The translations under genes were made by a program, and so were the position numbers. From Candidatus Multivorans sp. (lineage in GTDB: Bacteria > Acidobacteriota > Thermoanaerobaculia > Multivoradales > Multivoraceae): DNA of 64,000 bases. The stretch is from assembly GCA_965262355.1 (NCBI GenBank), contig OZ253534.1:3023670-3087669 (forward strand), written 5' to 3'. Below, piece after piece: positions 20,056-64,000 of the stretch (its first letter is position 1; each line of letters begins with the position of its first letter). Under the pieces are notes generated by a model that was not told the origin of the DNA, made no database searches, and saw only the letters and a program-made list of their open reading frames with translations.

Positions 20056-20071
20056 CCGGTTCTCCCTGCTC

Positions 20072-31767: not shown

Positions 31768-31921
31768 TCGGCTGACTACGCTCGAACAGGCGTTCGTCGA
31801 ACCCCGGTGGCGCGTGTCGCGCCAGCAGTGAACCAGTCCGTACGCCCGTCCGCAGGCGCACGGATGGAAGGTCCGGGCAGGTGGTCGGCATACACGGTCC
31901 GCAACCTGACCGGACCTATAC

Positions 31922-32266: not shown

Positions 32267-32521
32267 GGCTGGATGAAACGCTCGCCCGTCGGCTTGCTGC
32301 CGAGGTATCAAGCGAACTCAGGAATCTGGACCTCCTCGAGGAGCAGAGCGCCGACGCGCCTCAAGGAGAGGACACGTTCTCTCTGCGCGCCCGAGGCTCG
32401 ATTCTCCACGATTTCTACAGCGGCATCGAGCGAGTGTTCGTGCGTATTGCCGAAGAACTCAACGGCGGCGTTCCGTCGGCAGGTGGGGGGAGTTTCTCGC
32501 CTGGATCGTCGTCGGTTCGGA
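32263..32521 (+). pseudogene. HEPN / NTase-substrate-binding (HI0074-like) partner gene remnant, frameshifted and truncated
   Basis: TTG start overlapping MNT stop; LRNLDLLEEQ...RGSILHDFYSGIERVFVRIAEELNGG (R-x4-H motif) then homology lost at G7 run 32492-32498 and by convergent peptidase gene. Confidence 0.4.
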
Positions 32522-32556
32522 TCCGTAGCGGGGATGGCGTAGCAGCGAGTAGCTTG

Positions 32557-33840: not shown

Positions 33841-33926
33841 GGCAATTACCTCGCTGAAGCAGTAACGGTTCGATGTCTCAGTTGGGCCTCCCCCCTCGGG
33901 CCTCCGGACTGGCGGGTGCCGCCGCC

Positions 33927-47725: not shown

Positions 47726-48532
47726 ATGACCACTCGACTTCCGCAACGCTACGGCGGCGCCGCCCTGATTACAGGCGCCTCCAGCGGTATCGGGGAGGCC
47801 TACGCGCGGCGGCTTGCCGATGAGGGCATGGAACTGGTGCTGGTCGCACGGCGCACCGACCGGCTCGAGAAGCTGGCGCGGGAACTGCGCTCGGCCTCGG
47901 ATGTGACGGTCCATGTCGTTCCCCAGGACCTTGGGGAGCGCGCCGGCCCGCGGCTTGTCTTCGAGGCCGTCGACGATCTCGGGATCGAGGTCGGCATGCT
48001 GGTGTCGAACGCCGGCTTCGGCACCTACGGGCCCTTTGTCGAGCAGGATCTCGAGCTTCAACTTCAGATCGTCGAGGTCAACAACCGGGCGGCCGTGGGG
48101 CTGGCAACGATTCTCGTTCCGCGGCTCGTCGAGCGCGGTCGCGGCGCGCTGATCTTCCTGTCGAGCACGGCGGCCTACCAGCCGGTGGCGTTCGAAGCGG
48201 TCTACGGAGCGTCGAAGGCATTCAACCTGATGTTCGGCGAAGCGCTCTGGGCGGAGCTCTCGGAGCACGGAATCGACGTCATCGTGCTGTCGCCGGGATT
48301 CACGCCCACCGAGTACCAGAAGAAGGCCGGCATGGGCGAGCCCGAGCCGGTGACCGGTTGGACGAGCCCCGAGCAGGTGGTGGACGCCAGCCTGCGCCGG
48401 CTCGGCCGCGCCTCCTCGGTCGTACCGGGCTGGCGCAACCGTGTCGTCATCTTCCTGATGCGCATCCTGACGCGGCGCGCGGCGGCGCGCCTGACCTACC
48501 GGGTCAACAAACCGGCCAGCCGATCAGGGTAG
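47726..48532 (+). CDS. SDR-family oxidoreductase
   Basis: TGASSGIG, YGASK. Confidence 0.85.
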   Translation: MTTRLPQRYGGAALITGASSGIGEAYARRLADEGMELVLVARRTDRLEKLARELRSASDVTVHVVPQDLGERAGPRLVFEAVDDLGIEVGMLVSNAGFGTYGPFVEQDLELQLQIVEVNNRAAVGLATILVPRLVERGRGALIFLSSTAAYQPVAFEAVYGASKAFNLMFGEALWAELSEHGIDVIVLSPGFTPTEYQKKAGMGEPEPVTGWTSPEQVVDASLRRLGRASSVVPGWRNRVVIFLMRILTRRAAARLTYRVNKPASRSG

Positions 48533-49236
48533 AGCAGCGCCGGCGCAGAGCCCTGGCTCGCGGTGGCTTCGCTCCCCTCGCGAAGCCCGGCGTACCTGTC
48601 CTCGAGGAACTCCTCGAGTTCGTCGGTATCGAAGTTGAACGGCCCCATGCCGCCCTTGTAGGCGATCGTGCCGCCCTTGTCGATCACGTAGATGCGCTCG
48701 GGCCAACCGGCGTAGCAGGCGTTGGCGGTGTTGGCGATGTCGTCCACCAGGGTCCGTGTCTTGACATCCATCGCCTCGACGAACTCCTTGGCGAGGTCCA
48801 TGCGGTCAACCATCGTCTTCGGCTGATTGAAGATCAGTTCGTTGGTCACGTTCTTGGGCGCTTGCCACTCGTCGTCGGGGTGGGCTTCCTTGATGTAGAT
48901 GTAGCTGAACTCGACCGCCGGGCTCCACTCTTCTCGCACCTCTTCGAGCCGGGCCACACGGGCCCGGAAGGGCGGTCACGTGTAGCTGCCGAAGACGAGC
49001 ACGAGGGGCTTGGCAGCCCACAGGGCGGAGAGGCGCATCTGATCGCCGCCGACCAGGTCCAAGGGCAGGTCGGGGGCGAAGTCGCCGACCTGGAGGATGC
49101 CCTCCGTGCGAATGTCGTACTCGTTGAGCCTGATGAGCCCGCGCTCCGCCAGGAAGCGGTAGGTCTTGAAGCCGCCCCATCCGAGGACACCGAGGATGAC
49201 CAGACTGACAACGACTATCGTGACCCAGCGTTTCAT
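48496..49236 (-). CDS. Iodothyronine-deiodinase-family thioredoxin-fold selenoprotein, membrane-anchored. In-frame TGA = Sec at 48976-48978. The ORF track splits it into two ORFs
   Basis: Translation across the TGA gives LVLVFGSYT-U-PPFRARV (deiodinase active site FGSCTUPPF); downstream family motifs FSYIYIKEAHPDDEW and YAGWPERIYVIDKGGTIAYKGGMGP; N-terminal TM anchor; both ORFs share a frame. Confidence 0.75.
48949..48975 (-). promoter_or_regulatory. Candidate bacterial SECIS hairpin immediately 3' of the UGA
   Basis: mRNA: UGA-ccgcccuu-CCGGGCC-cgugu-GGCCCGG; 7-bp GC stem, GU-containing apical loop, 8 nt after UGA. Confidence 0.5.
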
Positions 49237-49283
49237 GGCGGACTCTCCTCCTAGTATGGGGCGGAAACTATAGCGGAACCGCG

Positions 49284-50465
49284 CTAGGCGGCCTTTCCGA
49301 CCACGGAGACGCAGCTCACGCAGTTGCCGGGAAGTCCTCCGAGATTGTGGGTCAGTCCGATCCGCGGGTCGGCGACCTGCCGTTCGCCGGCCTCGCCGCG
49401 CAGTTGTAGCCAGATCTCGTACATCATGCGCAGGCCGCTGGCGCCGATCGGGTGGCCGAAGCTCTTGAGTCCGCCATCGGAATTGATCGGCTGGCGACCG
49501 TCGAGTTGGAAGCGGCCGTCCAGGCAGTCTTTCCAGGCCTGGCCGCGCTCGGAGAATCCGAGGTCCTCCATCAGCACCAGCTCGGTCGGAGTAAAACAGT
49601 CGTGGACCTCCGCCAGACTGATTTCCTCGCGCGGGTTCGTGATGCCGGCCTGCCGGTAGGCGTCCTCGGCGCTGGCCACAACCTCGGGGAAGGTGGTGAA
49701 GTCGTAGTCCGGTTTCTTGACCCCTTCGGCCGGCCCGACGACGAATCCGACGCCCTTCAAGAGAAGCGGGTCGTCGCAGTAGCGGTGGGCGTCCTCGGCC
49801 CGGCAGAGGACCGCGGCGGCAGCGCCGTCGCTCACTCCCGAGCAGTCGAAGAGCCCGAGCTTGCCGGCGATCGGAGGAGAGGACCTGATCCGTTCCAAAG
49901 GCACCTCGCGCCGGAACTGGGCCTTGGGGTTCTTGGCCCCATTGGCGTGGTTCTTGTACGCGATCCGGGACAGCACGTCCTTCAGCGTGTCTTCGCTGAC
50001 GCCGTACTTCTCGGCGTAGGCCGGCACGATCATGGAGAACGCCGCCGGCGGCGTCATCTCGAGTTCGGTGCCGTCTGTCGTCGGATTCAGATCGAAGAGC
50101 CCGGAGTAGCCCGAGTCCTTCAACTTCTCGACACCGAGGGCCATGACGATGTCGTAGGCGCCGCTGGCGACCGCATACGCCGCGTTGCGCAGAGCTTCGC
50201 TACCGGTGGCGCAGAAGTTCTCCACGTGGGTGACCGGCTTGTAGCGAATCTTCAACGGCTCGGCGAGGAGCAGACCCGAAGCCAGGGTGCCGGCGCTGCC
50301 GAGCCAGAAGGCGTCGATCTCGGCGAGATCGAGCCCCGCCGAAACGAGTGCTTCTTGCGACGCCGTCAGGGAGAGATCGCCGATGCTCTGGTCCCAGTGC
50401 TCCCCGAAGGAGGTGCACCCCATCCCGATGATCGCGACCCGATCCTTGATTCCATGACTCGGCAT
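49284..50465 (-). CDS. SCP-x-type thiolase / lipid-transfer-protein-like thiolase
   Basis: VAIIGMGCTSFGE; thiolase-fold C-terminal GGLKSFGHPIGASG. Confidence 0.8.
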   Translation of the reverse strand: MPSHGIKDRVAIIGMGCTSFGEHWDQSIGDLSLTASQEALVSAGLDLAEIDAFWLGSAGTLASGLLLAEPLKIRYKPVTHVENFCATGSEALRNAAYAVASGAYDIVMALGVEKLKDSGYSGLFDLNPTTDGTELEMTPPAAFSMIVPAYAEKYGVSEDTLKDVLSRIAYKNHANGAKNPKAQFRREVPLERIRSSPPIAGKLGLFDCSGVSDGAAAAVLCRAEDAHRYCDDPLLLKGVGFVVGPAEGVKKPDYDFTTFPEVVASAEDAYRQAGITNPREEISLAEVHDCFTPTELVLMEDLGFSERGQAWKDCLDGRFQLDGRQPINSDGGLKSFGHPIGASGLRMMYEIWLQLRGEAGERQVADPRIGLTHNLGGLPGNCVSCVSVVGKAA

Positions 50466-50501
50466 GACCTTCTCCTTCGCAAGTCCGATCGGCCCTCTGC
50501 T

Positions 50502-51884
50502 TCAGCGCCGCGGTCTGGCCTTCCAGAAGTAGTTGTGAATGCCTTCAGCGGAGTGCAGGCAGCGAAACGTCATTTCGACCCGGTCCCCGATCCGCACGTT
50601 GTGCGGGTCGATGTCGGTGAGTTGGCAGGGTAGCCTGCCGCCTCGATCGAAGTCGAGCATGGCGACGACCACCGGCGGCTGCAGGGAATAGGCGAGATTG
50701 TCCTGCGTGTAGGTGGCTACCCGTGCCGCCCTGTCGGCGAAGGACTCGGGCTCGGTCTCGTCGATCGAGTTGCACTCGACGCACACTCTCTGGGGCGGCA
50801 GGTTCGCCGTGCCGCAGTTGGCGCAGCGCGATCCGACGAAGCCGAATTTCCAGCGCTTGGCGCGATACGACGGCGGCGCTGCCGGCCGCTTCGGGTCGGG
50901 ACGCCGGGGCTTCTCGAATGGAAGCACGCCGCGCCACTTGAGGTAGGTGTTGTACTGCAGGTCGTTGCGCTTGGCCTCGATCCATCGTCCCACGCTCCGC
51001 TCGGGGCGGCTGGCGGCGATCGCCTCGGTCACCTCGAAGATGATCGCGTCGGCGCCGTCGATGCCGGCGATGACCGCGATCCGGTCGCCGGGCTCGGCCC
51101 GGTCGAGAACGTTTGCCAGGGCAAGGCCCACATGCGCCGTGCCGGCCCGCCCGACGGAGGCCGCGAGATCGTCGGCCAGGCGATCGGCGGGAATGCCTGC
51201 CTTGGCGACGAAGCTCCGCACCGCGCGCGGGTTCGTGCTGTCCACGATGACCCTGGTCAGGCTTTCCGCGGCAACGCCGGCGCCGGTCAGGGCCTGCTCC
51301 AGCGCGCGCAGCATGAGGGGGACGATGATCTGAGTCCCGAACCGCTCCTCCCATTGATTGGCGAAAGGCTCATTCGGCGCCCGCCACACGTCCATGAACT
51401 CGTCGGTCGCTGAGCCGCTGCCCAGAACTTCCGCGCAAGCTTCAACGCTGGGACCGAAGCTGAAGGCCGCGGCCCCGTCGCCGCCGGTCGCCTCACGCGC
51501 ACCGCCTGGGGCGCCGACCATCACTTCGCTCAGGCACACGAGCGGCCGCCGTCCGCCGAGGGCCAGGTCGTTGCCAAGCGCCAGGGAAGACAGGCCGGCC
51601 CGGCTCGAGCCGCCGAAGTCGTGCCCCCCAACGCCGGGCGGCAAGTCGAGCGCCGCATGGATGGTGGCGGCGTCGAGCTTCTCGGCGTAGGCGGGCGTTG
51701 TCGTTGCGAAGCAGAGAGTGTCGATCCGGGCACCGCCGCGCAGAGCCTCGCGCGCCGCCTCGACCGCCATCGACACCGAGCTCTCGTCGTAGCTCGCCGC
51801 GGCGCGCTCACCGCGGCCGCCGAACACGGCGCGGTTGAGGCGGTTGTACGGTACGTAGGCGCCGTAGGTGACGATTCCAGCCAA
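50502..51884 (-). CDS. Thiolase-fold (HMG-CoA-synthase-like) domain fused to DUF35 (Zn-ribbon + OB-fold) domain
   Basis: C-terminal CANCG...CVEC zinc ribbon followed by OB-fold (DUF35); N-terminal about 350 aa condensing-enzyme-like. Confidence 0.65.
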   Translation of the reverse strand: MAGIVTYGAYVPYNRLNRAVFGGRGERAAASYDESSVSMAVEAAREALRGGARIDTLCFATTTPAYAEKLDAATIHAALDLPPGVGGHDFGGSSRAGLSSLALGNDLALGGRRPLVCLSEVMVGAPGGAREATGGDGAAAFSFGPSVEACAEVLGSGSATDEFMDVWRAPNEPFANQWEERFGTQIIVPLMLRALEQALTGAGVAAESLTRVIVDSTNPRAVRSFVAKAGIPADRLADDLAASVGRAGTAHVGLALANVLDRAEPGDRIAVIAGIDGADAIIFEVTEAIAASRPERSVGRWIEAKRNDLQYNTYLKWRGVLPFEKPRRPDPKRPAAPPSYRAKRWKFGFVGSRCANCGTANLPPQRVCVECNSIDETEPESFADRAARVATYTQDNLAYSLQPPVVVAMLDFDRGGRLPCQLTDIDPHNVRIGDRVEMTFRCLHSAEGIHNYFWKARPRR

Positions 51885-51906
51885 CTTCGTGCTGCTCCTG
51901 CCGCTG

Positions 51907-54498
51907 CTAGCGATCCCCGACCCAGAACGGACTCGACCAGGCCCGGCCGCCGTCGAGTTGGGTTACCCGAACATAGTAGTAGTCGCCGTCCGCAACGTCC
52001 TCGAAGTCCACGAACTGAACTTCCCGGTCGAGGGCGCCGCTTGGATCGACCGCCTGCAGGTTGAGGCGGTCCAGGTGAGGTCCGACCGGCAGCTCATGAT
52101 GGAGGCGGCCGGCCTCAAGCTCGCCGAGCCGGACTTCGAAGTCGGCGGCGGCGATCCGGGCGGCGGGCCTGACCGCCGGTGCGAAGCCGAACTCCGTGGT
52201 CGCCTCGAGGCGGAAGCGGAGCCGGGTTTGAGGACCGGCGCCATCGAGTTCGACCAGGAACGAGTCGGCGCGGCCGCGAGTCAGGATGCGGAACCTGGCG
52301 CCGTCCCGCGACCCTTGATCGAGCCGCGAGACTTGATCGCGAAGCGGGTTGTCGAGGCCGGTCGGTGCGATGCCGATAAGGCGCGCTCCCTCGACTTCGA
52401 GGGTACCTTCCCACTGTCGGTAGCCGCGGGGGTTGTCGAGCTGCTCGCCGAAGACCTCGGAAGAGGATTCGAAGGACACCTGCAGCCAAGTGTGCGGCTT
52501 GAGCGGTTCGGCAAGGTAGTGCTTGCTGAGGATGATGTCGCCGTTGCGCACCACGTCGATTCGATCGATCGGCGAAGTGCCGTTGACCTTCACCCGGATC
52601 TCGCGCCGCCCGGCGCTCTCCTGCCGGCGCCCCATGCCGGCGCCGTTCAGAGTCGCCTCGAGCAGAATGCGTTGCCCGGAAGTGGCGTAGCACGAGAGGT
52701 TACGCAGCGCCGAGAACACGGCGTCTCTGCTGAGTTCGGGGGCCAGCACGGCGGCCAGACCCCCGGGCTGGGAGACGCTCGAGAGGGGTCCCGGCGCCAG
52801 TCCCGGCTTGGCATGGTGGTCGTCCGAGGCGGCCACGAAGCCGAGTTCGAAGCCGCTCTTGAGGTAGCGGTTGGCAAACCACTCGAAGCTGCCGTGAACC
52901 GAGTAGAGCTCGACCAGCTTTTCCAGCTCGGGATCGCTGCGGGTCCAGTCGCCGGCGCGATGGGCGTGCGGAATGACCAGGACCTCGTCGGGATCGTAGA
53001 TCGCATGCAGTTGGCGATAGAGATCGGGCAGCCGGGTCGCTTCCTGAACGGAGACTCGACGGCTCCAGGGATCGAGAAAGAAGACGTTGTGGTGCCCGCC
53101 ACGGTTGCTGAACGCTGTCCATTCGTAGCCCAGGATGCCGATGAAGCGACCCTCTTCGCTGAAGTCGCGGGTCAGCTCCCCGAGGTGAAGCCACTCGCTG
53201 TCGTCCATCCAGATGTCGTGCTCCGAGAGCGTCGCGAAGTCGAGGCGGGCGTCTCGGCTGGCGTACTCGAAGAACGCCCGCGCCGAGCCGGTTCCCTCCG
53301 CCAGTCCGGTGTGGCCGTGGGTGTCGCCCCAGAGAATGCGCTCCGCCGGTTCATGCTCGACCCGAATCGGGTTGCTGGTCGCGCGCAACCGGCCATCGAC
53401 CGAGCGCACCTCGAGGCGGTGGACTCCGGGCGCTTCGATCGCCAATTGGTCGACCACCGTCAGGGCATCGTGGCCGGCCTCGACCCTCGCCATGGCGTCC
53501 CCGTTCAGGAACACCTCGTAGGCGGGAATCGGCCCGCTGGCTCGATTGATGGCCCGGTCTTCGCTTCGCACCGTGATCTCGAAGGCCTCGCCGGCGCCGA
53601 CGACGGATGGCGCCAGGATCCGAACGGCGTGGACTGCCGCCTCGCCGACGACCTCGATTCCCGGCAACTCGGGAGTCAGGTACGTCCCGCTGCCGTCGAT
53701 GTCCACGTAGACCGGCAGCAGCAGCTCGTCACTGCTGAATGCCGGCACCGCGAGACGGCTCGATTCGCCGCCGTAGGTGAACGTGACCGTTTCCCCCGGT
53801 TTGAGCGCGGCCCCCTCAAGCCGGAAGCCGGGCAGCGGACGTTTGCCTGGGACGTGCGAGTGGACACCGTTCCATTCCACCTGGACGGGCTCGAACAGAG
53901 CCGAGGGGTTGGAACTGCGCACCGAGACGAAGTTCTCGGCGGCCGGATCCTGGTTCTGGGGTCGGGTTTCGTTACCGGTCCCCGACTTGCCGACCAGGAA
54001 TCCTCCGCCGAGCGCGAGGCCGCGGGCGCCGGCGGTGTACGTCTGCTCGACGATGACCCGGGTGCCGGAGACCAGGGGGCTGGCCGTGGTCATGCGCAAC
54101 GCGCCCATTGCCTGCGGATCCGACTCCTTCAACTCGAGTTCCCGCACGTACTGATCGAACCGCTCCACTTGTGTCTGAAGGTACAGATCGATAGCTGGCG
54201 GCAGGCGAACTTCACCGCCGTCCGCTTCGGCGAAGCGAACCAGGGCCACCGTGAGGGGTAGATCCGCCGGCAAGACGCCTCCGTCGAGGGCGAAGCTGTT
54301 GGCCCAGTCCCACAAGGTGTCGGTGCGGCGGAAGATGTTGTGTGCCGACGTGGGCTCGCGCTCGATGTCCGCGATCAGCTTCTCGACCCGGTCGCGAAGG
54401 TCTTCGGCAGTCTGGACGGACTCGGGCGCCGGAGAGCAGCCAATCCATAGCAGTGCCAGCGCGACCAGCACGGCCGCGCTTTGACGCCGGGACGGCAT
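51907..54498 (-). CDS. Large DUF3604-like (PHP-like metal hydrolase) lipoprotein, paralog A (863 aa)
   Basis: Lipobox WIGCS; ILWGDTHGHTGLAEG, LSEHD, GGHHNVFF, VIPHAHRAGDW, ASDDHH; C-terminal YYYVRVTQLDGGRAWSSPFWVG. Confidence 0.6.
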   Translation of the reverse strand: MPSRRQSAAVLVALALLWIGCSPAPESVQTAEDLRDRVEKLIADIEREPTSAHNIFRRTDTLWDWANSFALDGGVLPADLPLTVALVRFAEADGGEVRLPPAIDLYLQTQVERFDQYVRELELKESDPQAMGALRMTTASPLVSGTRVIVEQTYTAGARGLALGGGFLVGKSGTGNETRPQNQDPAAENFVSVRSSNPSALFEPVQVEWNGVHSHVPGKRPLPGFRLEGAALKPGETVTFTYGGESSRLAVPAFSSDELLLPVYVDIDGSGTYLTPELPGIEVVGEAAVHAVRILAPSVVGAGEAFEITVRSEDRAINRASGPIPAYEVFLNGDAMARVEAGHDALTVVDQLAIEAPGVHRLEVRSVDGRLRATSNPIRVEHEPAERILWGDTHGHTGLAEGTGSARAFFEYASRDARLDFATLSEHDIWMDDSEWLHLGELTRDFSEEGRFIGILGYEWTAFSNRGGHHNVFFLDPWSRRVSVQEATRLPDLYRQLHAIYDPDEVLVIPHAHRAGDWTRSDPELEKLVELYSVHGSFEWFANRYLKSGFELGFVAASDDHHAKPGLAPGPLSSVSQPGGLAAVLAPELSRDAVFSALRNLSCYATSGQRILLEATLNGAGMGRRQESAGRREIRVKVNGTSPIDRIDVVRNGDIILSKHYLAEPLKPHTWLQVSFESSSEVFGEQLDNPRGYRQWEGTLEVEGARLIGIAPTGLDNPLRDQVSRLDQGSRDGARFRILTRGRADSFLVELDGAGPQTRLRFRLEATTEFGFAPAVRPAARIAAADFEVRLGELEAGRLHHELPVGPHLDRLNLQAVDPSGALDREVQFVDFEDVADGDYYYVRVTQLDGGRAWSSPFWVGDR

Positions 54499-55346
54499 CA
54501 GCTATTGATCACCTGGTCGATCACGTGCCGGATGGCGGCCGGATCCCAAGGGTCGTCGCTCGTGTGCTGCTTGGCGCCCACGGTGCTCATCATGCGGTAG
54601 GCGAAGATGTGTGTCCCCTCGACTCCCAGCGTCTGGCCGGTGATGTGAGCCGCGTGGTCCGATGCCAGGAAGACGACCAGGGGTGAAGCGTGTTGGGGGC
54701 CGTAGCGAGCGCCGAAGCTCTCGGTGACGCCCGGATTGTCCGCGGTCATGCGGGTGTAGGCGGTGGGCGAGATCGCGTTGACAGTGATTTCGTAGCGCTG
54801 CAGCTCCATGGCGGCGGTGCGCGTCAGGGCGTAGATGCCGGCCTTCGCCGCGGCGTAGTTGCTCTGCCCGAAGTTCCCCTGCATTCCGGCAATGGATGTC
54901 GTATTGATGATCCGGCCGCCTCGGCCCTGCTCGCGCATCACGCGCCCGGCCGCCTGCAGGCAACTGAAGGTGCCGCTGAGGTGCACCGCCAGAACCGCCT
55001 GCCACTCCGCCTCGCTCATCTTGAGAGCCGTTCGATCGCGCAGGATGCCGGCGTTGTTGACCAGGACGTCGACGCCGCCGAAGGCATCGACCGCCTGCTG
55101 GACGAGTTGGCCGGCGGCATCGAAGGCGCCGACGGCGAGCTTGCTGGCGACGGCATCCCCGCCATCGGCGCGGATCCGGGCGACGACCTCGTCGGCAACG
55201 TCACTCTCGCCCGAACCGTCGCGCGCGCAGCCCGGGTCGTTGACCAGGACGCGCGCTCCTTCCCTGGCGAGGAGAAGGGCGTGGGATCTGCCCAGGCCGT
55301 TGCCTGCGCCGGTGACGATGGCTACTTTTCCGGCCAGCAGTCCCAT
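54498..55346 (-). CDS. SDR-family dehydrogenase (hydroxyacyl-CoA dehydrogenase-like)
   Basis: TGAGNGLG, YAAAK; stop shares one nucleotide with paralog A start (TGATG). Confidence 0.85.
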   Translation of the reverse strand: MGLLAGKVAIVTGAGNGLGRSHALLLAREGARVLVNDPGCARDGSGESDVADEVVARIRADGGDAVASKLAVGAFDAAGQLVQQAVDAFGGVDVLVNNAGILRDRTALKMSEAEWQAVLAVHLSGTFSCLQAAGRVMREQGRGGRIINTTSIAGMQGNFGQSNYAAAKAGIYALTRTAAMELQRYEITVNAISPTAYTRMTADNPGVTESFGARYGPQHASPLVVFLASDHAAHITGQTLGVEGTHIFAYRMMSTVGAKQHTSDDPWDPAAIRHVIDQVINS

Positions 55347-55475
55347 GGGCCTCCTCTCTTGAGTCTCGATCTTCGGCGGTCCACTCTAGCGTCTCCGTAA
55401 CTCCTCTCGGCCGCCGTGCTAACTTGACCTCGACCGTCCAGCCGCCGTCCCAGCCTGAAGGAGCGTGGTACGCGA

Positions 55476-58082
55476 ATGCGGAGTGTTCCTCTCAAAAGAG
55501 TTCTCCTGGCTGTGTGCGCCGTCGTTGTCGCCTGCGCGCCGCCGCCGGGTGACGACTATCTGGACGCGGATCTGAGATTGCGGGTGGAAGCGCTCAAGGT
55601 GGAGGTCGAAGCGGCGCCGGCGACCCGGGAGAACGCGGTGCAGCGCGCCCGAGTGTTCTGGGAGTGGTTGAACGCCTACGCGCTCACCGGTCGAACCCTG
55701 CCCATGGACAGCACCACGGCGGTGATGCGGGTCATGAGCCGGAACGAGCTCAGCCGGGGCATCTCGCCAGCAATCCTCAGGACTCTCGACGACAAGATCC
55801 ACGAACTGGCGATTCGCGACGCGCGCCCGGACGCCATCGGCGACGTTACGGCCAAGGCCGACGAGCTATTGGTCGCCGGCAGTTGGGCGCAACTCGAACA
55901 GACCTATACCGTCGGCTCGATGGGGATGGCCACCGGAGGCTCGTTCCTTCTCGGCGCCCAGATCATGGCCGACCAGGCGTCGATGCAGCACGAGGATCCT
56001 GCGGCGGACAACTACGTTTCGGTCCGTTCGTCGAACGCCGATGCACGTTGGGAGAAGCCCCGCATTCCTCTGTCGGGGAAGCACGGCGGCTTCAAGGACG
56101 AAGCGGAGATGGTGGTCTTCCGGCTCGCGGAAGGCACGCTCGAGCACGGCGACACGGTGACCTTCACCTACGGTGACAGGTCGCAGGGCTCCTCGGGCCT
56201 GAGGTTGCAGACGCTGACGACCGAGAAGCTGGTGCTGCCGATCTACGTCGACCTTACGGGCGCCGGGGTCTTCTTTACGCCTCGCTGGCCGCATCACGAG
56301 ATCGTCGGCCGGAACGAAGTCGAGTCGTTGGCGGTCTTCGCTCCTTCCGTGGTCGCGGCGAGCGAGGAGATCGACTTGGTGGTGCGCAGCGAGGATCGGC
56401 ACTTCAACCGCTCGCGCGGTGTCACCGTTCAGGAGTACGAAGTGCTGCTAGACGGTGAGGCCGTCGCCACGGTACCCGCGGGTTCGGAGTCGGCGGCCGG
56501 CGTCGAAGGCTTGTCCGTGAGCAGCCCGAGGGTCGCCCGCTTCGTCGTCCGTTCGGCGGACGGCCGGCTCGAAGCCCGGAGCAATCCGGTCTGGGTCGAG
56601 AGCGCCCCCGAACAGCGAATCTATTGGGGCGAGCTCCACGGCCACGCCGGCTTCGCGGAAGGTCAGGGCGGCGGCGAGCAGTTCTATCGCTACGCCCGCG
56701 ACGACGCGCGGCTCGACTTCGTTGCCCTCACCGATCACGACTCGTCGATGGACGACTTCGAGTGGCGGTACCTGCAGGAGCTCAGCCGGGACTTCAACCG
56801 GGAAGGAGAGTTCCTCGCCATTCTCGGCTACGAGTGGAGCGCCACCCGGGATCTCGGAGGGCACCACAACGTCTTCTTCCGCTCCCGCGATCGTTCGCGG
56901 GTGCCGAATCAGGAGGCGCCGACCCTGGCCCAGATGTACGAGCGTCTGCGGAGCGAGAACCAGCCGTCCGAGGTGCTGGTCATTCCGCATGCCCACCAGG
57001 CTGGCGACTGGAACCAGAGTCCCGGGGATCTCCAGTCGCTGGTGGAGATCATGTCTCAGCACGGGACCTTCGAGTGGTTCGGCAACCGGTACCTGCAGAA
57101 CGGTTTCGAGGTCGGCTTCATCGCGGCCTCGGACGATCATCGCGCCAAGCCGGGCTACAACCCCGGGCTCTTCTTCTCTCCCCACGTTCAGGGCCCCGGC
57201 CTGGCGGCGGCCGTGGCGGCCGAGAAGACCACGGACGCGGTCTTCGACGCTCTACGCTCACGCCGCGCATACGCCACTTCGGGCCAGAGAATCCTGCTCT
57301 CGGCCACCCTGAACGGCGAGCCCATGGGAACGCGGCAGCCGTACACAGAGCGGCGCGAGTTCTCCTGCCGGGTGTCGGGTACTTCTCCCATCGACCGCAT
57401 CGACCTGATCAAGAACGGGCGCGTCCTGCGCAGCCGCAGCTACCTGTCGGCGCCGCTCGAATCGAGTGCCTGGGTGCAGATCGGGTTCGAGTCGTCTTCG
57501 GAGGTCTTCGCTCCCGACCGCGACAATCCGCGCGTCTACAGGGTCTGGTCGGGCGTACTCGAGGTGGCAGGGGCCCGGCTTCTCGGCGTTGAGTCTCCGG
57601 GTCTGAAGAACCCCTATCTCGAGTGGGCCGAGATCGACCCGGAGGAGCCGCAGCGGGTGCGCTTCTACACCGAGACCCGCGGCCGGATGAACACGCTCTT
57701 GCTTCGTCTGAGCGGCGCCAGCAGCTCAACGCGGGTCACGCTGCATCTGGATGCGGCGCGGGAGAACGGCTTTGCGCCGCCGCTCGTTCGGCAGCCGATG
57801 GACATTCCCGCCGCCGAAGTGGCGTTCCAACTCGACGATCTCGAGGACAGCCGCATCGAGCACGTGCTGCCGGTCGGCCGCCATCTCGATCGTCTCAGCC
57901 TGCAGGTGATCGACGCGGATGCCGCCCTCGACCGGGAGTTCGACTTCGTCGATCTCGGGTCGACTGCACCGGGCGACTACTACTACTTCCGAGTGACACA
58001 GCTCGACGGCGGTCAGGCATGGTCGAGCCCCTTCTGGGTCGGCCGCCGCGATGCCGGCGACGGCGCTGCCGCGGGCGGTTAG
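55476..58082 (+). CDS. Large DUF3604-like lipoprotein, paralog B (868 aa)
   Basis: Lipobox VVACA; about 55-60% identical to A through the His-rich core. Confidence 0.6.
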   Translation: MRSVPLKRVLLAVCAVVVACAPPPGDDYLDADLRLRVEALKVEVEAAPATRENAVQRARVFWEWLNAYALTGRTLPMDSTTAVMRVMSRNELSRGISPAILRTLDDKIHELAIRDARPDAIGDVTAKADELLVAGSWAQLEQTYTVGSMGMATGGSFLLGAQIMADQASMQHEDPAADNYVSVRSSNADARWEKPRIPLSGKHGGFKDEAEMVVFRLAEGTLEHGDTVTFTYGDRSQGSSGLRLQTLTTEKLVLPIYVDLTGAGVFFTPRWPHHEIVGRNEVESLAVFAPSVVAASEEIDLVVRSEDRHFNRSRGVTVQEYEVLLDGEAVATVPAGSESAAGVEGLSVSSPRVARFVVRSADGRLEARSNPVWVESAPEQRIYWGELHGHAGFAEGQGGGEQFYRYARDDARLDFVALTDHDSSMDDFEWRYLQELSRDFNREGEFLAILGYEWSATRDLGGHHNVFFRSRDRSRVPNQEAPTLAQMYERLRSENQPSEVLVIPHAHQAGDWNQSPGDLQSLVEIMSQHGTFEWFGNRYLQNGFEVGFIAASDDHRAKPGYNPGLFFSPHVQGPGLAAAVAAEKTTDAVFDALRSRRAYATSGQRILLSATLNGEPMGTRQPYTERREFSCRVSGTSPIDRIDLIKNGRVLRSRSYLSAPLESSAWVQIGFESSSEVFAPDRDNPRVYRVWSGVLEVAGARLLGVESPGLKNPYLEWAEIDPEEPQRVRFYTETRGRMNTLLLRLSGASSSTRVTLHLDAARENGFAPPLVRQPMDIPAAEVAFQLDDLEDSRIEHVLPVGRHLDRLSLQVIDADAALDREFDFVDLGSTAPGDYYYFRVTQLDGGQAWSSPFWVGRRDAGDGAAAGG

Positions 58083-58116
58083 GCGAGGATCGCGAGGCGT
58101 CGCGGGCGGAGAACGG

Positions 58117-59697
58117 ATGTCGCTGAGGGAGTCCTACTGGCCGGCCGATACCAGCCAGCCGGTTCTCGAGTGGACGGTGGGCAGGCTCTTGCACGAGGCC
58201 GCAGCGGCGGCCCCCGAAGGGATTTCCCTGGTCGAGGGCGTTCCCGACCCCGCGTCGCGCCGTTGCTGGACCTTCGCGCAGTTGCTTGCCGACGCCGAGC
58301 ACGTCGCGCGGCGTCTGCTGCGGTACTTCGAGCCCGGGGAACGGCTCGCGGTCTGGGCTCCGAATCTGCCCGAATGGGTGTTGGTCGAACTCGGCGCCGC
58401 CCTCGCCGGGCTCACCCTCGTGACCGTCAACCCCGCCTACCGCGGCAGCGAACTCGAGTACGTCCTCGGCCAGTCGCGCGCCGCCGGTCTGTTCCTGGTG
58501 CGCGACCATCGCGGCAACTCGATGGCCGCTTCGCTGGACGAGGTGCGCCCGCGGTTGGAACACCTGAGAAACGTCTTCTTCTTCGAGGAGTGGGACGACT
58601 TCATGGGCGGCTCGCCGGGCGACCGCGAGCTACCTCAGGTGAGCCCCGAGGCGCCGGTCCAGATTCAGTACACCTCGGGCACCACCGGCGTTCCCAAGGG
58701 CGCGTTGCTGCACCACCGCGGCATGGTCAACAACGCCCGATTCGTCGCGCAGCGCGGCCGGTTGGGCAAGGTGTGGGTGAATGCGGTACCGCTGTTCCAC
58801 TCGAGCGGCGGCGGCCTGGCGATCTTCGGCCCGCTGTTTACGAAGGCGACGGTGGTTCTGGTCGAACAGTTCGACCCGGGCCTGATCCTGGAACTGATCG
58901 AGAGCGAGCGGGTGACCTTCCTTCCCGGCGTGCCGACCATGCTGATCAAAATCCTGGAGCATCCCGACTTCGAGCGCCGCGACCTCTCTTCGCTGACCAG
59001 CGTGTGCTCGGGCGGCACCTCCGTGCCACCCGAGTTGGTGCGCCGGATCGAAGACTCGCTGGGGGTCAGCTTCTCGATCTCCTACGGCCAGACGGAGGCG
59101 TCACCAGGGGTCACGCAGAACTATCCGGACGACAGCATCGAGGACAAGGCGGTGACGGCAGGGCCGCCTCTACCCCAGACCGAGGTCAAGATGGTCGACT
59201 CCGAGACCGGCGAGGTTCTCCCCGTCGGCGAAGCCGGTGAAATCTGCACGCGCGGTTACCTCGTCATGCACGGTTACTTCGAGATGCCGGAGGCGACGGC
59301 GGCCGCGATCGACGACCAGGGGTGGTTGCACACCGGCGACATCGGATCGATGGACGAGCGCGGCTACTGTAGAATTCGCGGGCGGCTGAAGGAGATGATC
59401 ATCCGCGGCGGCGAGAACATCTACCCCAAGGAGATCGAGGATGTGCTCCTCGAACGCGCCGACATCGCCGAGGCGGCGGTGATCGGCGTTCCCGATCCGA
59501 AGTGGGGCGAGCAGGTGGCGGCGGTGATTCGACTGGCCGGGGACGAGCGCCCCAGTGAGGAAGATCTCTTCGACTACGTGAGGGAACGCTTGGCGCCCTA
59601 CAAGACGCCGAAGTTGTGGCGCTTCATCGACGAGTTTCCGCTCAACGCCTCGGGCAAGATCCTCAAGACGGATCTGGCCGCGACCCTGTCCCTGTAG
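58117..59697 (+). CDS. AMP-dependent acyl-CoA synthetase/ligase
   Basis: YTSGTTGVPKGA AMP-binding motif, C-terminal GKILK. Confidence 0.85.
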   Translation: MSLRESYWPADTSQPVLEWTVGRLLHEAAAAAPEGISLVEGVPDPASRRCWTFAQLLADAEHVARRLLRYFEPGERLAVWAPNLPEWVLVELGAALAGLTLVTVNPAYRGSELEYVLGQSRAAGLFLVRDHRGNSMAASLDEVRPRLEHLRNVFFFEEWDDFMGGSPGDRELPQVSPEAPVQIQYTSGTTGVPKGALLHHRGMVNNARFVAQRGRLGKVWVNAVPLFHSSGGGLAIFGPLFTKATVVLVEQFDPGLILELIESERVTFLPGVPTMLIKILEHPDFERRDLSSLTSVCSGGTSVPPELVRRIEDSLGVSFSISYGQTEASPGVTQNYPDDSIEDKAVTAGPPLPQTEVKMVDSETGEVLPVGEAGEICTRGYLVMHGYFEMPEATAAAIDDQGWLHTGDIGSMDERGYCRIRGRLKEMIIRGGENIYPKEIEDVLLERADIAEAAVIGVPDPKWGEQVAAVIRLAGDERPSEEDLFDYVRERLAPYKTPKLWRFIDEFPLNASGKILKTDLAATLSL

Positions 59698-61276
59698 CGG
59701 CCAGCGCGGCCTCGGCCGGTCCCACGTGAGCGCGCGCCCGCCATAGGAACGCGACCGAGACCACCCAGAACAGCATGCTGAGCATCATCGCGTAGCGCAG
59801 CGAGTCGGCCGGCGATTGGCCGGCCGCGACCAGGACGTCGCTGATCTTGCCGACCGCGAACGGCCCGAGGGCGAAACCGATGAGAGTGTTGAGCAGGAGA
59901 TAGACCGCCGAGGCCGTCGAGCGCATTCTCGGCGGCACGAGTTCGTTGGCTGCGGCTGCTCCGGGACCGATCCACAGAGATACGAAGGCGACGGTCAGGA
60001 GAAAGTAGATGAAGGCCGCCGTGAGGCTGGCGGCGGTGAGCATGAGAATCATCGCCGGCACGGACAGGACGACAGTAGCCAGACCGAGAATGACCCGGCC
60101 GTTCGGTGTCCTCTGCTTCAGGCGATCGGACACCAGGCCGCCGGCAGTGACGCCGATCCAGCCGCCGACCGCGACGCCGATGCCCATCAACGCCCCCACC
60201 CGGGTCGGACTGGCGTCGAAGCTGCGGATCAAGAGCGGCGCTGTCCAGAACGCGAGGCCATTGGTGACGAAGGACAGGCTGGCGAAGCCCACACTGCTGT
60301 ACATGAAGGCGCGGTTGCCAAGAATGCAGCCGAAAGTGGTGGGGTCGCGATAGGCCAGTCCCTGACCCCAGGAGAAGGCGGCGTAGATGCCGATGGCCAG
60401 GGCGATCCACTGGGCCGGCTCGCCCACCGAGGCGACCATCGCCCATGCCACCAAGGCCAGCGCGGCGGCACAGCCGGCGTGGATCAGCAGCCCCTTCCGG
60501 TCACACCCGGATCGCCACAGACTGATGACCGTGAAGGGTGGTATGACGGCCCCGAACTCCTGGAGCGGCTGCGGACGACCCACGGTTTCGACCGCAACTC
60601 CCTCCTGCTGGCCCTTGGCGGGCTCTCGCAGGGTCCACACCCAGAGGGCCATGATCAGCCCCGGGATACCGACCGCGAGGAAGGCGGCTTGCCAGGCGGC
60701 GAGCCCCAGCGGCGCCGATCCGTCGGGGTACCTGCCGCTCCAGAAATCGACGATCCAGCCGCCGAGGGCGAAGCCGGTGGCGGCGCCGAGATAGATACCG
60801 CCGGAGTAGAGAGCCAGAGCCGTGGCTCGCAATCTCTGGGGAAAGTAGTCGACGATCAACGAGTACGCCGACGGACTGAGGCTGGCTTCTCCGACGCCGA
60901 CTCCGACGCGGTACGTGCCCAGCATCGCGAAGCTCCGGGCAGTGCCTGTCAGGGCAGTCATCAGGCTCCAGAAGAAGAGCCCGATGGCGATCAGGTTCTT
61001 GCGGATCCAGGCATCGCCCAGACGACCGAAGGGGATGCCGAAGACGGCGTAGAACACCGCGAAGGCGGTGCCGTAGAGAAAGCCGATCTGGGCGTCCGTG
61101 AGACCCAGATCGCGCTTCACGTCCTCGGCGAGAATCGAGAGGATGTTGCGATCGACGTAGTTGAAGAGATAGCAGAGGACGAGAACGGCGAGGACGTACC
61201 AGGAGTAACCGCTGAACGCCCGCCTCTCGCGAGAAGTCGAACGCTGCGGCTCGGCGCCGTTCTCGCTCTCGTGCAT
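59663..61276 (-). CDS. MFS transporter
   Basis: 12-14 TM helices; GRLGDAWIRKN MFS signature-like. Confidence 0.75.
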   Translation of the reverse strand: MHESENGAEPQRSTSRERRAFSGYSWYVLAVLVLCYLFNYVDRNILSILAEDVKRDLGLTDAQIGFLYGTAFAVFYAVFGIPFGRLGDAWIRKNLIAIGLFFWSLMTALTGTARSFAMLGTYRVGVGVGEASLSPSAYSLIVDYFPQRLRATALALYSGGIYLGAATGFALGGWIVDFWSGRYPDGSAPLGLAAWQAAFLAVGIPGLIMALWVWTLREPAKGQQEGVAVETVGRPQPLQEFGAVIPPFTVISLWRSGCDRKGLLIHAGCAAALALVAWAMVASVGEPAQWIALAIGIYAAFSWGQGLAYRDPTTFGCILGNRAFMYSSVGFASLSFVTNGLAFWTAPLLIRSFDASPTRVGALMGIGVAVGGWIGVTAGGLVSDRLKQRTPNGRVILGLATVVLSVPAMILMLTAASLTAAFIYFLLTVAFVSLWIGPGAAAANELVPPRMRSTASAVYLLLNTLIGFALGPFAVGKISDVLVAAGQSPADSLRYAMMLSMLFWVVSVAFLWRARAHVGPAEAALAATGTGSRPDPS

Positions 61277-61283
61277 GGCGGCG

Positions 61284-61772
61284 CTAACTCGCGTCTTCTG
61301 CTGTCGATGGCATGAAGAGAACCAGGGGCCGGGCGACGAAGACGAGGCGATCCTCTCCGGCCAGGCGTACACGCACTTCTCGCGCCAGCAGGGTTCCGCG
61401 GCTTTTTTGCTGAACGTCGACCAACCGGACGCTGGCCTGCAGGCGGGCGCCGGCCGGCACCGGGGCGAGGAAACGAACCCGGTCGATGCCGTAGTTCGTC
61501 GAATTGCCGAATCCCGTGACCCGGAAGTCGGCGCCGTCCGGGAGGTTGGCGAACAGGCTCAGGGTGAGCATGCCGTGGGCGATAGGCCGCCCGAAGGGAC
61601 TCTCGCGGCGCGACCGCTCGACATCGACGTGGATCCAGTTGTGGTCTCCCGAGAGTTCGGCGAACGCGTCGATCATCGCCTGCTTCACTTCCAGGGGCTC
61701 GCCCCAGGGGCCGAACTCCTCGCTGATCTCGGCGCGGAGGGCGTCGATGTCGTCGTAGCGGATCGTCCTCAT
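61284..61772 (-). CDS. MaoC-like (R)-specific enoyl-CoA hydratase (hot-dog fold)
   Basis: LSGDHNWIHVDVERS, PIAHGMLT; start overlaps paralog C stop. Confidence 0.8.
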   Translation of the reverse strand: MRTIRYDDIDALRAEISEEFGPWGEPLEVKQAMIDAFAELSGDHNWIHVDVERSRRESPFGRPIAHGMLTLSLFANLPDGADFRVTGFGNSTNYGIDRVRFLAPVPAGARLQASVRLVDVQQKSRGTLLAREVRVRLAGEDRLVFVARPLVLFMPSTAEDAS

Positions 61773-63991
61773 GGGCGGGCGCCGGCGGGGTCCGGGCCGG
61801 GTTCCCGGGCGCCGAGCCAGAACGGGCTCGACCAAGCCTGACCGCCGTCGAGCTGGGTGACGCGTACATAGTAATAGTCGCCGGGCGCTGCCGGTCCCAT
61901 GTCCAGGTACTCGAACTCGCGGTCGAGCGGGGCGTCCGGCTCGACGACTTGCAGGGTCACGCGGTCGATGTGCTCGCCGAACGGAACTTCGCTTTCGAGT
62001 CGGTTGTCCCGAAGGCCGGCGAGCCGGAGCTCGATACTGGCGCCGGGGATGTCCATCGCCGGACGTTCGTGCCCCTGGCCGATACCGTACTCGCGGCTCG
62101 GCTCGAGCTCGATCTCGAGCGTGGTCGACGCCGTGGCGCCGGCGAGTCCCAGCAGAACGGTGTCGCTGCGGCCGCGGGTGCGAATGTCGAAGCGAAGGAG
62201 GCCGGCGTCTTCGGTCTCGATCCAGTCGAGTACCCGGTTGTCGAGGCCTACCGGGACCACGTCCAGAACCCGCGCTCCGCGCACCCGCAGCGTGCCGCGC
62301 CAGACGCGGTAGGGGCGTGGGTTGTCGACCGCGTCCAGTGTGAAGACCTCGGAGGAGGACTCGAAGCCGAGTTGCAGCCAGGACCGGTCGCGGAGAGGCG
62401 CCGACAGGTAGCTGCGGCTGAAGGCGATCTCGCCGTTCTTCACCACTTCGATGCGGTCGATGGGGGAGGTGCCGGATACCCGGGCGGTTATCCGGCGCTC
62501 CTCGGCCCGCGGCTGGCGGACCCCCATCGGATGACCGTTCAGCTCGGCGTCGAGCAGGATGCGCTGACCGGAGACGGCGTACACGGAGCGCTCGCGCAGG
62601 GCGTCGAAGATGGCGTCGGCGGTCTTTTCGCCGGCGCGCACGGCGGCCAGCCCCGGAACTCCGATCAGCGAGGCCTGGAAGTGACCCTGGGGAGCTCCGG
62701 GCTTGGCGCGATGGTCGTCCGAGGCCGCCAGGAAGCCGACCTCGAAGCCGTTCTTCAGGAACATGTTGCCGAACCACTCGAAGGTGCCGTGCTCGCTGTA
62801 GATCTCGACAAGGCGCTCGAGTTCGCCGTCGCTCTGCGTCCAGTCTCCCGCGGAGTGCGCGTGCGGGATGACCAGGACGTCAGCCGGGTCGTTGGCGGCG
62901 CGAAGCCCCTCCCACAGCAGCGGCAGCCGATGCGCTTCCTGGACCGGCACCCGCTCGCGGTCGGGGCTGCGGAAGAGCACGTTGTGGTGGCCGCCGCGTT
63001 TGCGGGTCGGGGTCCATTCGTAGCCCAGGAAGGCGATCGCCCGGCCCGCCTCCGTGGTGCGGCGGCTGAACTCCTGCAACTGTTGCCACTCGTAGTCGTC
63101 GAGCCAGAAGTCATGCTCCGAGAGGGTCAGGAAGTCGAGGCGCGCGTCCTCTACACCGTAGCGGAAGTACCCCGCAGGCGATCCCTGGCCCTCGGCGAAG
63201 CCGGTGTGGCCGTGGGTTTCTCCCCACAGGATCCTGCGCTGGGGCTCGGCTTCGACCCAGACCGGGTTGCTCGTGGCCTCAAGCGTGCCGTCGGTCGAAC
63301 GGACCACGAAGCGGTAGGTCCCGGGCTCCTGGATCGTCAGCCCGCCGGCGATGGCGACGGCGCTTTCGGGCTCCGCGACCTCAGCTACGACTTCGCCGTT
63401 CAGGAGGATCTCGTAGCCGGGCAGGGGGCCGCTGGCGCGGTTCAGGCCGGCGTCCTCGCTGCGAACCGTCAGGTCGAAGGTCTCGCCCACCGCCACCACC
63501 GACGGGGCCAGCACTCTCACGCCCGCCACAGCGCCCCCGATCACCGTCAGGCTCGGCCACCTGGGAGTCAGCCAGTTGCCGTTGCCCTGAAGATCGATGT
63601 ACAGCGGTAGCAGCAGGGCGTCGGTTTCGAAGGCCTGGACTCCGATTCCGGCCGAGCCGCCGGATCGATCGCCGTACGTGACGGTGATCGTGTCGCCGGG
63701 ATCGAGGGGGGCGTCGACAAGGCGGAAGGCCGGCGTCGGTTTCGGGAAGCGCTGCGAACCGTGCGGCCCCACGAGGGGAACCATGACCGCTTCGAGCCAA
63801 GCCTCGGGCTTTGAGGTTCGGGCAGTGAGGTAGTTGGGGCCTGCCGGATCCTGGTTCTGGAAGTCGTTCGTGTCGGCCAGCCACTGGCGTCCGGCCAGCA
63901 CGCCGCCGCCGATCTGCATCGGCATGTTGCCGACTTCATAGACGACTTCGACGGTCGCCTTCGTGCCCGCGGTCAGCGGTTCGTCGGGCAC
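61769..63991 (-). CDS. Large DUF3604-like protein, paralog C (N-terminus beyond window end)
   Basis: ILWGETHGHTGFAEG...GGHHNVLF...VIPHAHSAGDW...YYYVRVTQLDGGQAWSSPFWLG. Confidence 0.6.
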   Translation of the reverse strand: MPDEPLTAGTKATVEVVYEVGNMPMQIGGGVLAGRQWLADTNDFQNQDPAGPNYLTARTSKPEAWLEAVMVPLVGPHGSQRFPKPTPAFRLVDAPLDPGDTITVTYGDRSGGSAGIGVQAFETDALLLPLYIDLQGNGNWLTPRWPSLTVIGGAVAGVRVLAPSVVAVGETFDLTVRSEDAGLNRASGPLPGYEILLNGEVVAEVAEPESAVAIAGGLTIQEPGTYRFVVRSTDGTLEATSNPVWVEAEPQRRILWGETHGHTGFAEGQGSPAGYFRYGVEDARLDFLTLSEHDFWLDDYEWQQLQEFSRRTTEAGRAIAFLGYEWTPTRKRGGHHNVLFRSPDRERVPVQEAHRLPLLWEGLRAANDPADVLVIPHAHSAGDWTQSDGELERLVEIYSEHGTFEWFGNMFLKNGFEVGFLAASDDHRAKPGAPQGHFQASLIGVPGLAAVRAGEKTADAIFDALRERSVYAVSGQRILLDAELNGHPMGVRQPRAEERRITARVSGTSPIDRIEVVKNGEIAFSRSYLSAPLRDRSWLQLGFESSSEVFTLDAVDNPRPYRVWRGTLRVRGARVLDVVPVGLDNRVLDWIETEDAGLLRFDIRTRGRSDTVLLGLAGATASTTLEIELEPSREYGIGQGHERPAMDIPGASIELRLAGLRDNRLESEVPFGEHIDRVTLQVVEPDAPLDREFEYLDMGPAAPGDYYYVRVTQLDGGQAWSSPFWLGAREPGPDPAGARP

Positions 63992-64000
63992 GACGCGGAG

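Follow-up and report, generated by a model that had tools for sequence, protein, structure and literature searches.

CehA and McbA are the only characterised proteins with the NF038032 domain model, and to our knowledge the DUF3604/CehA-like family has no assigned function apart from two pesticide hydrolases. CehA and McbA are large periplasmic proteins of ~770–800 aa. They hydrolyse carbamate esters, and their PHP-like domain has essential histidine residues (PMC8292978). Here we describe three paralogous relatives, termed A, B and C, that lie among genes for CoA-thioester chemistry in a 64,000-nucleotide stretch of DNA (hereafter the window; contig OZ253534.1, positions 3,023,670 to 3,087,669, ~67% G+C) from Candidatus Multivorans sp. 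(Acidobacteriota; Thermoanaerobaculia). The literature that we searched contained no description of an exported, triplicated PHP-fold hydrolase tied to CoA-dependent catabolism and nothing useful on Candidatus Multivorans; the single paper that named DUF3604 was irrelevant.

The gene map combines a listing of open reading frames (ORFs), a gene call based on G+C at third codon positions (GC3) and profile scans, and its ORF calls over-extend N-termini. A (51907–54498, minus strand, 863 aa), B (55476–58082, plus strand, 868 aa) and C (61769–64000, minus strand) lie where the initial annotation of this DNA had placed three PHP-like, DUF3604-related paralogs. For C, the boundary at 61769 held, while the other did not: the gene runs beyond the end of the window, so that its 5′ end and signal peptide are not visible; at least 743 aa are seen, and the ortholog in locus L001 has 877 aa. 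The other two paralogs share 49% and 54% identity with A over 740–868 aa. The motifs WG(D/E)THGHTG, SEHD, GGHHNVFF, IPHAH.AGDW and ASDDH and the C-terminal YYY.RVTQLDGG.AWSSPFW are invariant among the three proteins, in agreement with the initial annotation, and the motifs remain so in an alignment with 21 homologs at 43–81% identity. The candidate metal ligands, assigned to the metal site from the order of the motifs rather than from coordinates, are H394, H396, H427/D428, E459, H469, H511, H513, H535, D559 and H561 (A numbering), and they are invariant in A, B, C and the 23-sequence homolog alignment. They follow the PHP ligand pattern of an N-terminal HxH, a bridging Glu, three further His and a C-terminal DxH. 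Since the series HxH, Glu, His, HxH, His, DxH is invariant, all three paralogs look catalytically competent at the level of sequence.

AlphaFold2, given the 23-sequence alignment, produced a confident model of A (pLDDT 87.5, pTM 0.88). In this model a signal region is followed by a helical domain (~31–126), two beta-sandwich domains (133–381), a PHP-fold alpha/beta metallohydrolase core (387–610) and C-terminal beta-sandwiches (612–863), and the core is predicted to adopt the distorted (beta/alpha)7 barrel of PHP proteins. The closest structural matches are all phosphoesterases or nucleases, namely 3e38, TM0559 (2anu), PsfC (7rty), EndoQ (5zb8) and RNase AM. The first four are 13–20% identical to A, which is not detectable by sequence, and the solved PHP phosphoesterases are small proteins of one or two domains, in contrast to about six in A. 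These results identify A, B and C as multidomain paralogs in which a multi-metal PHP-fold hydrolase core of the CehA/McbA type is intact.

The central domain of all three narrowly passes the NF038032 (CehA/McbA metallohydrolase) cut-off of 80 bits, at 81.7 bits for A, 94.3 for B and 80.9 for C, with ~270 of the 315 model positions aligned, and B has the same architecture as A. Neither the plasmid collection nor the named cluster members contained a CehA or McbA sequence. There are also differences. CehA and McbA are encoded on transposons or plasmids together with aromatic pathways and not with CoA genes, and the N-terminal helical domain of A, B and C is specific to an Acidobacteriota-type subfamily, being confined to roughly the top hundred of the family representatives listed. 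NCBI names the homologs of A ‘DUF3604 domain-containing protein’. A search with the DUF3604 profile PF12228, a check suggested at the outset, gave 49–55 bits over a cut-off of 20.4, with the match restricted to two short stretches of the 591-position model. A canonical, full-length DUF3604 protein, D (35430–37457, plus strand), scores 528 bits. D shares with A, B and C the PHP-type motifs and a C-terminal ...AW(S/T)SP(I/F)W ending, whereas A, B and C carry ~380 extra N-terminal residues; the likeness between D and A is at the motif level only (39% identity over 83 aa). D overlaps a downstream beta-lactamase-like gene (37454–39007) by 4 nt, in line with the coupling proposed earlier. This overlap, like the others given below, was computed from ORF coordinates and not read off the DNA.

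A and B begin with lipobox-like signals (LLWIGC and VVVAC), and together with their orthologs they fit, in a pattern search, a K/R followed by a hydrophobic run and [W/V][I/V][G/A]C. Of the 96 family members of full length, only 34 show the same pattern. We take the three paralogs to be candidate exported lipoproteins; for A and B the lipoprotein signals named in the initial annotation are present as a pattern match.

The partner genes form three operons with the hydrolases, namely SDR1–A–fusion–thiolase–selenoprotein, B–ligase and C–MaoC–MFS. Profile scans confirmed the gene order read in the initial annotation, including the placement of C beside MaoC and MFS genes and of the ligase after B. 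The translational coupling claimed there fared differently from junction to junction. The stop of SDR1 and the start of A share 1 nt and the stop of C and the start of MaoC share 4 nt, whereas the 32-nt overlap of B with the ligase ORF as called (58051–59697, plus strand) is probably an artefact of an ORF called too long: its orthologs begin near MSLRESYW, at ~58117, which is the likely true start and lies 34 nt past B.

SDR1 (54498–55346, minus strand), a short-chain dehydrogenase/reductase (SDR), resembles MFE-2-type (3R)-hydroxyacyl-CoA dehydrogenases. Its best match in the PDB is the yeast MFE-2 (3R)-hydroxyacyl-CoA dehydrogenase 2et6 (320 bits), followed by insect and mammalian MFE-2/17beta-HSD4; 3oml, 1gz6 and 1zbq are among the matches. 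The 162-aa MaoC-type R-specific enoyl-CoA hydratase (61284–61772, minus strand) is closest to small R-specific hydratases (8vwr, 124 bits; Rv0130, 87 bits). The SCP2-type thiolase (49284–50465, minus strand) scores 594.7 bits with NF004810 against a cut-off of 403, matches PF22691 and keeps the nucleophilic Cys. The ligase, an AMP-binding acyl-CoA ligase, is of a generic medium- or long-chain type and stays below every specific cut-off. The MFS transporter (59663–61276, minus strand) is nearest to organic-anion and aromatic-acid symporter models, with all subfamily scores far below the cut-offs. Judged by these matches, the partner set would cover uptake and CoA activation, followed by R-specific hydration, oxidation and thiolysis. 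A (3R)-hydroxyacyl-CoA dehydrogenase, a MaoC hydratase-2 and an SCP2-type thiolase are thus all present, and their predicted stereospecificity corresponds to that of MFE-2. Enzymes of this R-specific MFE-2/SCP2 kind handle branched or steroid side chains in other organisms.

The initial annotation took the gene set to resemble a steroid or branched-lipid side-chain system of the Ltp2/ChsH2-DUF35/MaoC/FadD type. Under such a reading, the island would degrade a steroid, bile-acid-like or branched (isoprenoid) lipid side chain bearing sulfate or halogen, with A, B and C removing the conjugating group. The general enzyme class stands: the island, MFE-2/SCPx and the steroid enzymes Hsd4A, ChsH and Ltp2 share an SDR, a MaoC R-hydratase and an SCP2-type thiolase, here with a DUF35 partner, SDR1 is closest to MFE-2/17beta-HSD4-type proteins, and the ligase matches the FadD3 and steroid-24-oyl-CoA synthetase models. 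The specific steroid analogy fails on three defining features. First, the thiolase is not Ltp2-like: it scores 85 bits against Ltp2 (6ok1_A) and 124 against BbsB, compared with 210 and 200 bits against the archaeal acetoacetyl-CoA thiolases 7yvy and 6esq_A and 149 against the SCP2-thiolase 6hsj. Second, DUF35 is joined to an HMG-CoA-synthase/PhlA-like domain and not to a ChsH2-type MaoC domain. Third, scanning most genes of the window with Pfam, a few small ORFs excepted, revealed neither an acyl-CoA dehydrogenase nor a recognisable steroid ring-degradation gene. Unlike in MFE-2/SCPx and the steroid enzymes, moreover, the activities reside in separate small proteins, and there is no acyl-CoA dehydrogenase or oxidase; the ligase also falls far below the steroid-specific cut-offs. 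A sulfated or halogenated lipid substrate, as envisaged in the initial annotation, would have to rest on the deiodinase-like selenoprotein described below and on two sulfatase genes in the window (21918–23588 and 27259–28434). Both sulfatase genes exist, but they are 20–30 kb distant from the cluster rather than close by. Of 73 related loci, 14 carry sulfatase genes, and such genes are not enriched near family members. We therefore regard a steroid or lipid side-chain system as unlikely, and the island is not a proven steroid or sulfated-lipid system.

The gene between A and the thiolase (50502–51884, minus strand) was resolved by domain scans and PDB alignments as a fusion of an HMG-CoA-synthase/PhlA-like thiolase-fold domain with a DUF35 zinc-ribbon and OB fold. 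The DUF35 part matches 6esq_E, 9skh_E and 6ok1_B. The synthase-like domain aligns to 6esq_I and 9skh_A. Against 6esq_I it has Ser in place of the catalytic Cys and Thr in place of the catalytic Glu, and thus cannot be an HMG-CoA synthase. By analogy with the archaeal thiolase/HMG-CoA synthase/DUF35 complex and PhlACB, it probably serves as a scaffold for the thiolase. As a separate observation, its sequence would make it a single-chain equivalent of PhlA plus PhlB, or of archaeal HMG-CoA synthase plus DUF35, with the synthase dead.

Since the fusion and the thiolase together hold the same three modules as the archaeal 6esq complex and PhlACB (5m3k, 9skh), the CoA genes might alternatively be synthetic, the thiolase/DUF35 complex acting with a ketoreductase and a dehydratase in archaeal-type fatty-acid synthesis independent of acyl carrier protein or as a PhlACB-like acyltransferase, with the lipoproteins processing or remodelling an exported product. 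Biosynthetic uses of thiolase/HMG-CoA synthase/DUF35-type complexes have been described (bioRxiv 10.1101/2024.07.05.601840; PMC12960953) and would be compatible with this explanation. The present proteins differ from those complexes in that the synthase-like domain is fused to DUF35 and has lost its catalytic residues. Against a synthetic role, degradative or acetoacetyl-CoA thiolases are closer to the thiolase than PhlC is (106 bits), and neither an enoyl reductase nor carrier or export machinery is encoded. What is found instead is an acyl-CoA ligase and an MFS protein resembling importers, in surroundings rich in catabolic genes (pyrroloquinoline quinone (PQQ)-dependent alcohol dehydrogenases, sulfatases and esterases). 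A synthetic role thus appears highly improbable.

The last gene of the SDR1–A operon (48496–49236, minus strand) encodes a deiodinase-like thioredoxin-fold protein with an in-frame TGA. The UGA lies at 48976–48978 within FGSYT-U-PPF, and a 7-bp hairpin begins 11 nt downstream of it. The gene was followed through L001, L004–L009, L012 and L029, and the TGA is kept in nine orthologous loci. In L009 the hairpin carries a compensatory stem change, and in L029 a paralog beside another family member has the TGA with a different hairpin. The protein scores 119 bits with NF038285 and 79.8 bits with PF00837, and it combines a thioredoxin-fold T4_deiodinase domain and selenocysteine in an (S/T)-x-x-U motif with a UGA followed by a stem-loop. 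Sequence comparison therefore identifies a genuine selenoprotein, whose N-terminus is predicted to form a single membrane anchor, and the deiodinase-like redox protein of the initial annotation was recovered in the profile scans, as were its PQQ-dependent alcohol dehydrogenases. In L016, the C ortholog has a weaker deiodinase-like gene at a distance of 4 kb.

The selenoprotein raises the possibility of a more specific substrate class, in which A, B and C would act on aryl esters, carbamates or halogenated phenolic conjugates and the membrane-anchored selenoprotein would dehalogenate the phenolic product. Such a role would agree with the CehA/McbA domain model passing its cut-off, with the weak similarity of the MFS protein to aromatic-acid symporters and with the conservation of the deiodinase-like gene in the island, related genes being found beside family members in L029 and near one in L016. 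However, the island is without aromatic ring-cleavage genes, bacterial deiodinase-like proteins have no known function, and the NF038032 scores are marginal. We consider this variant very unlikely.

Orthologs of A reach 98% protein identity in complete long-read chromosomes of Candidatus Multivorans sp. metagenome-assembled genomes, and the whole island is syntenic in eight related genomes (L001, L004–L009 and L012), where the A orthologs are 75–98% identical. Conservation extends to the flanking genes, with the regulator, the second SDR and the PQQ-dependent alcohol dehydrogenase included in L001 (A, 79% identity), in L012 and in five or six of the genomes from Multivorans; the dehydrogenase is found beside the island in L001 and L004–L008. 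A, B and C form three separate orthogroups, each represented in all whole-island genomes, and thus the triplication predates the genus; the B orthogroup is conserved in ten loci, with the ligase retained beside B orthologs. In more distant Thermoanaerobaculia the island is split, and the pairs A–thiolase, B–ligase and C–MaoC persist. An A-like gene (59%) is followed by the fusion (69%) and the thiolase (79%) in L010. L011 holds the MFS, ligase, B, SDR1 and A genes together, and in L016, from the same genome, C (73%) is directly followed by MaoC (60%). In this split genome a family III CoA-transferase gene lies beside both parts (L016:13222–14412 and L011:2–712); the island of the window has none. 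Because the pairs persist where the island is split, there is good evidence that hydrolase and CoA genes are functionally linked in this lineage rather than paired by chance.

This conservation bears on a rival view, in which A, B and C would be common PHP-type phosphoesterases that scavenge phosphate from, e.g., organophosphates or nucleic acids outside the cell, with a gene order inherited without a shared pathway. The closest structural matches of A speak for that view, as does the finding that no CoA association extends across the family, in which most paralogs occupy unrelated contexts. It accounts less well for three operon junctions that are tight or overlapping, for pairs that persist at 59–73% protein identity after the island has split and for the CoA-transferases added beside both split parts. 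The scanned genes of the window also include none of pho type. Plain phosphoesterases in an inherited gene order are thus, in our judgement, improbable.

The reading that we prefer is a conserved catabolic island in which exported ester hydrolases feed an R-specific CoA pathway; at the level of the whole pathway we advance it tentatively, at somewhat less than an even chance. In this model, A, B and C would hydrolyse an ester-type bond (C–O, P–O or S–O) in related extracellular conjugates, possibly with one sub-specificity for each paralog. The released organic acid, or an alcohol oxidised to the acid by the neighbouring periplasmic PQQ dehydrogenases, would be imported by the MFS protein and activated by the acyl-CoA ligase. 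One R-specific round of beta-oxidation could then follow through the MaoC hydratase, the MFE-2-type dehydrogenase and the SCP2-type thiolase, the last held by the catalytically dead synthase-like/DUF35 scaffold.

Several points weigh against a catabolic pathway of this kind. A full beta-oxidation cycle is not encoded in the island, since it has no acyl-CoA dehydrogenase. PHP enzymes are mostly phosphoesterases, and hence a C–O ester substrate is a guess from CehA and McbA, for which the NF038032 scores lie only 1–14 bits over the cut-off; searches of PDB sequences with A and with the 23-sequence profile returned no relevant solved structure, and the literature searched contained no experimental datum for members of the A/B/C subfamily. 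Export is read from a sequence pattern only. Outside the lineage, other orthogroups mostly stand in unrelated contexts. When genes within 2 genes of the hydrolase gene were compared with those at least 4 genes away in 34 dereplicated orthogroups, ligase, SDR, PQQ-dependent alcohol dehydrogenase and sulfatase genes were not enriched near it (ligase, 3/115 near versus 3/264 far, p = 0.26), the far genes being a weak background as they still lie within 10 kb. The neighbourhood conservation that the initial annotation had called for thus holds for the island and its pairs in Thermoanaerobaculia and does not extend to a family-wide CoA link.

To place A, B and C in their family, at least 715 matches were counted among the scored candidates, with 515 loci in species-representative genomes and 2,459 representatives at 50% identity (E ≤ 1e-30). 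In Acidobacteriota the family has multiplied strongly, and a single 6.8-Mb chromosome from Thermoanaerobaculia bears at least seven loci. It is tempting to extend the model to all of these proteins. A, B, C and their ~2,500 representative relatives would then be a new class of exported non-phosphoesterase PHP-fold hydrolases that start the catabolism of conjugated acids or alcohols (e.g. aryl, isoprenoid, sulfated or halogenated esters), hard-wired in Thermoanaerobaculia to an R-specific CoA pathway and a halogen-removing periplasmic deiodinase-like selenoenzyme. We regard so general a scheme as distinctly unlikely.

In a second orthogroup (at least 11 loci), an SDR and a ligase gene stand two to three genes away, together with an esterase, a PQQ-dependent alcohol dehydrogenase and an unknown secreted protein, a setting that speaks for the catabolic model. 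The conserved neighbours c5 and c6 of this second context had no Pfam, NCBIfam or PDB match. A secreted protein of ~358 aa (L054:12634–13710), encoded directly downstream of family members, matched nothing in Pfam, NCBIfam or the PDB; it recurs in 14 other loci (L011, L024, L039, L044, L046, L051, L052, L056, L057, L059, L060, L062, L064 and L065), in a neighbourhood of SDR, ligase, a 461-aa unknown protein, a BD-FAE-type esterase, PQQ-dependent alcohol dehydrogenase and TrkH.

Distant homologs (25–36% identity) were found in Rhizobiaceae, Klebsiella plasmids, Azospirillum, Methylosinus, Roseobacteraceae and haloarchaea. Their usual neighbours are a regulator and a transporter for uptake (NitT/TauT-type ABC, TTT or MFS), and thus the family at large has the look of hydrolases that serve the catabolism of imported small molecules. 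Among plasmid homologs, those of Agrobacterium vitis, Natrinema halophilum, Azospirillum sp. B510, Rhizobium sp. N324 and Methylosinus trichosporium OB3b (L074, L075, L076, L079 and L081) lie in GntR/IclR plus NitT/TauT-type ABC or MFS modules near sulfite or sulfonate genes, namely TauE/SafE, a SorA-like sulfite dehydrogenase with cytochrome c, and ssuD/sfnG/msuE. In Natrinema, two MaoC genes and genes for an acyl-CoA dehydrogenase and a CoA-transferase are also close by. An organosulfur explanation was considered and dropped, because three contexts inspected as a later test (Halomontanus, Pseudosulfitobacter and Palleronia) contained no sulfite or sulfonate genes; with Sulfitobacter, Chelativorans and Klebsiella, six contexts are without them, and the link is kept as a weak lead.

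Neither the fold nor the domain model nor any type of partner enzyme is new, and the island would not surprise a specialist: the cluster is well conserved in an uncultured lineage and can generate testable hypotheses, with no evidence yet of unusual chemistry. It is also the clearest handle seen here on the role of one branch of the family, as each of the three paralogs is linked to one defined step in the CoA-dependent catabolism of acids, and complete long-read genomes exist for the lineage. If the substrate were found, thousands of genes could be annotated, and it would hint at the carbon eaten by abundant soil and sediment bacteria.

The island is bordered by a conserved regulator with an OmpR-type winged helix and TPR repeats (45909–47645, plus strand), which marks its edge. 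Next to it lies the gene of the second SDR, SDR2 (47726–48532, plus strand), a conserved part of the island that converges with the selenoprotein gene. One PQQ-dependent alcohol dehydrogenase gene (44065–45855, plus strand) adjoins the island, and another, with a cytochrome c domain, lies at 39739–41853 (minus strand).

Elsewhere in the window, a crotonase-type enoyl-CoA hydratase gene (7186–8133, plus strand) is located 40 kb from the island. It belongs to gene cluster c38, of which a further member stands directly beside two adjacent family genes in L022 and another occurs in L071. An IS110-family transposase gene (785–2167, minus strand) and an AbiEii-type toxin gene (25495–26325, plus strand) are also present. 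In the ORF at 9158–15850 (plus strand), a DDE_3 transposase/HTH segment runs into a giant PKD/Big/cadherin-repeat surface protein, and this ORF probably represents two genes. Three ORFs with coding-like GC3 (32557–34035, minus strand; 31807–33003, plus strand; 19751–20191, plus strand) had no Pfam match even at E ≤ 1; the first two overlap on opposite strands, and thus at most one of them is real.

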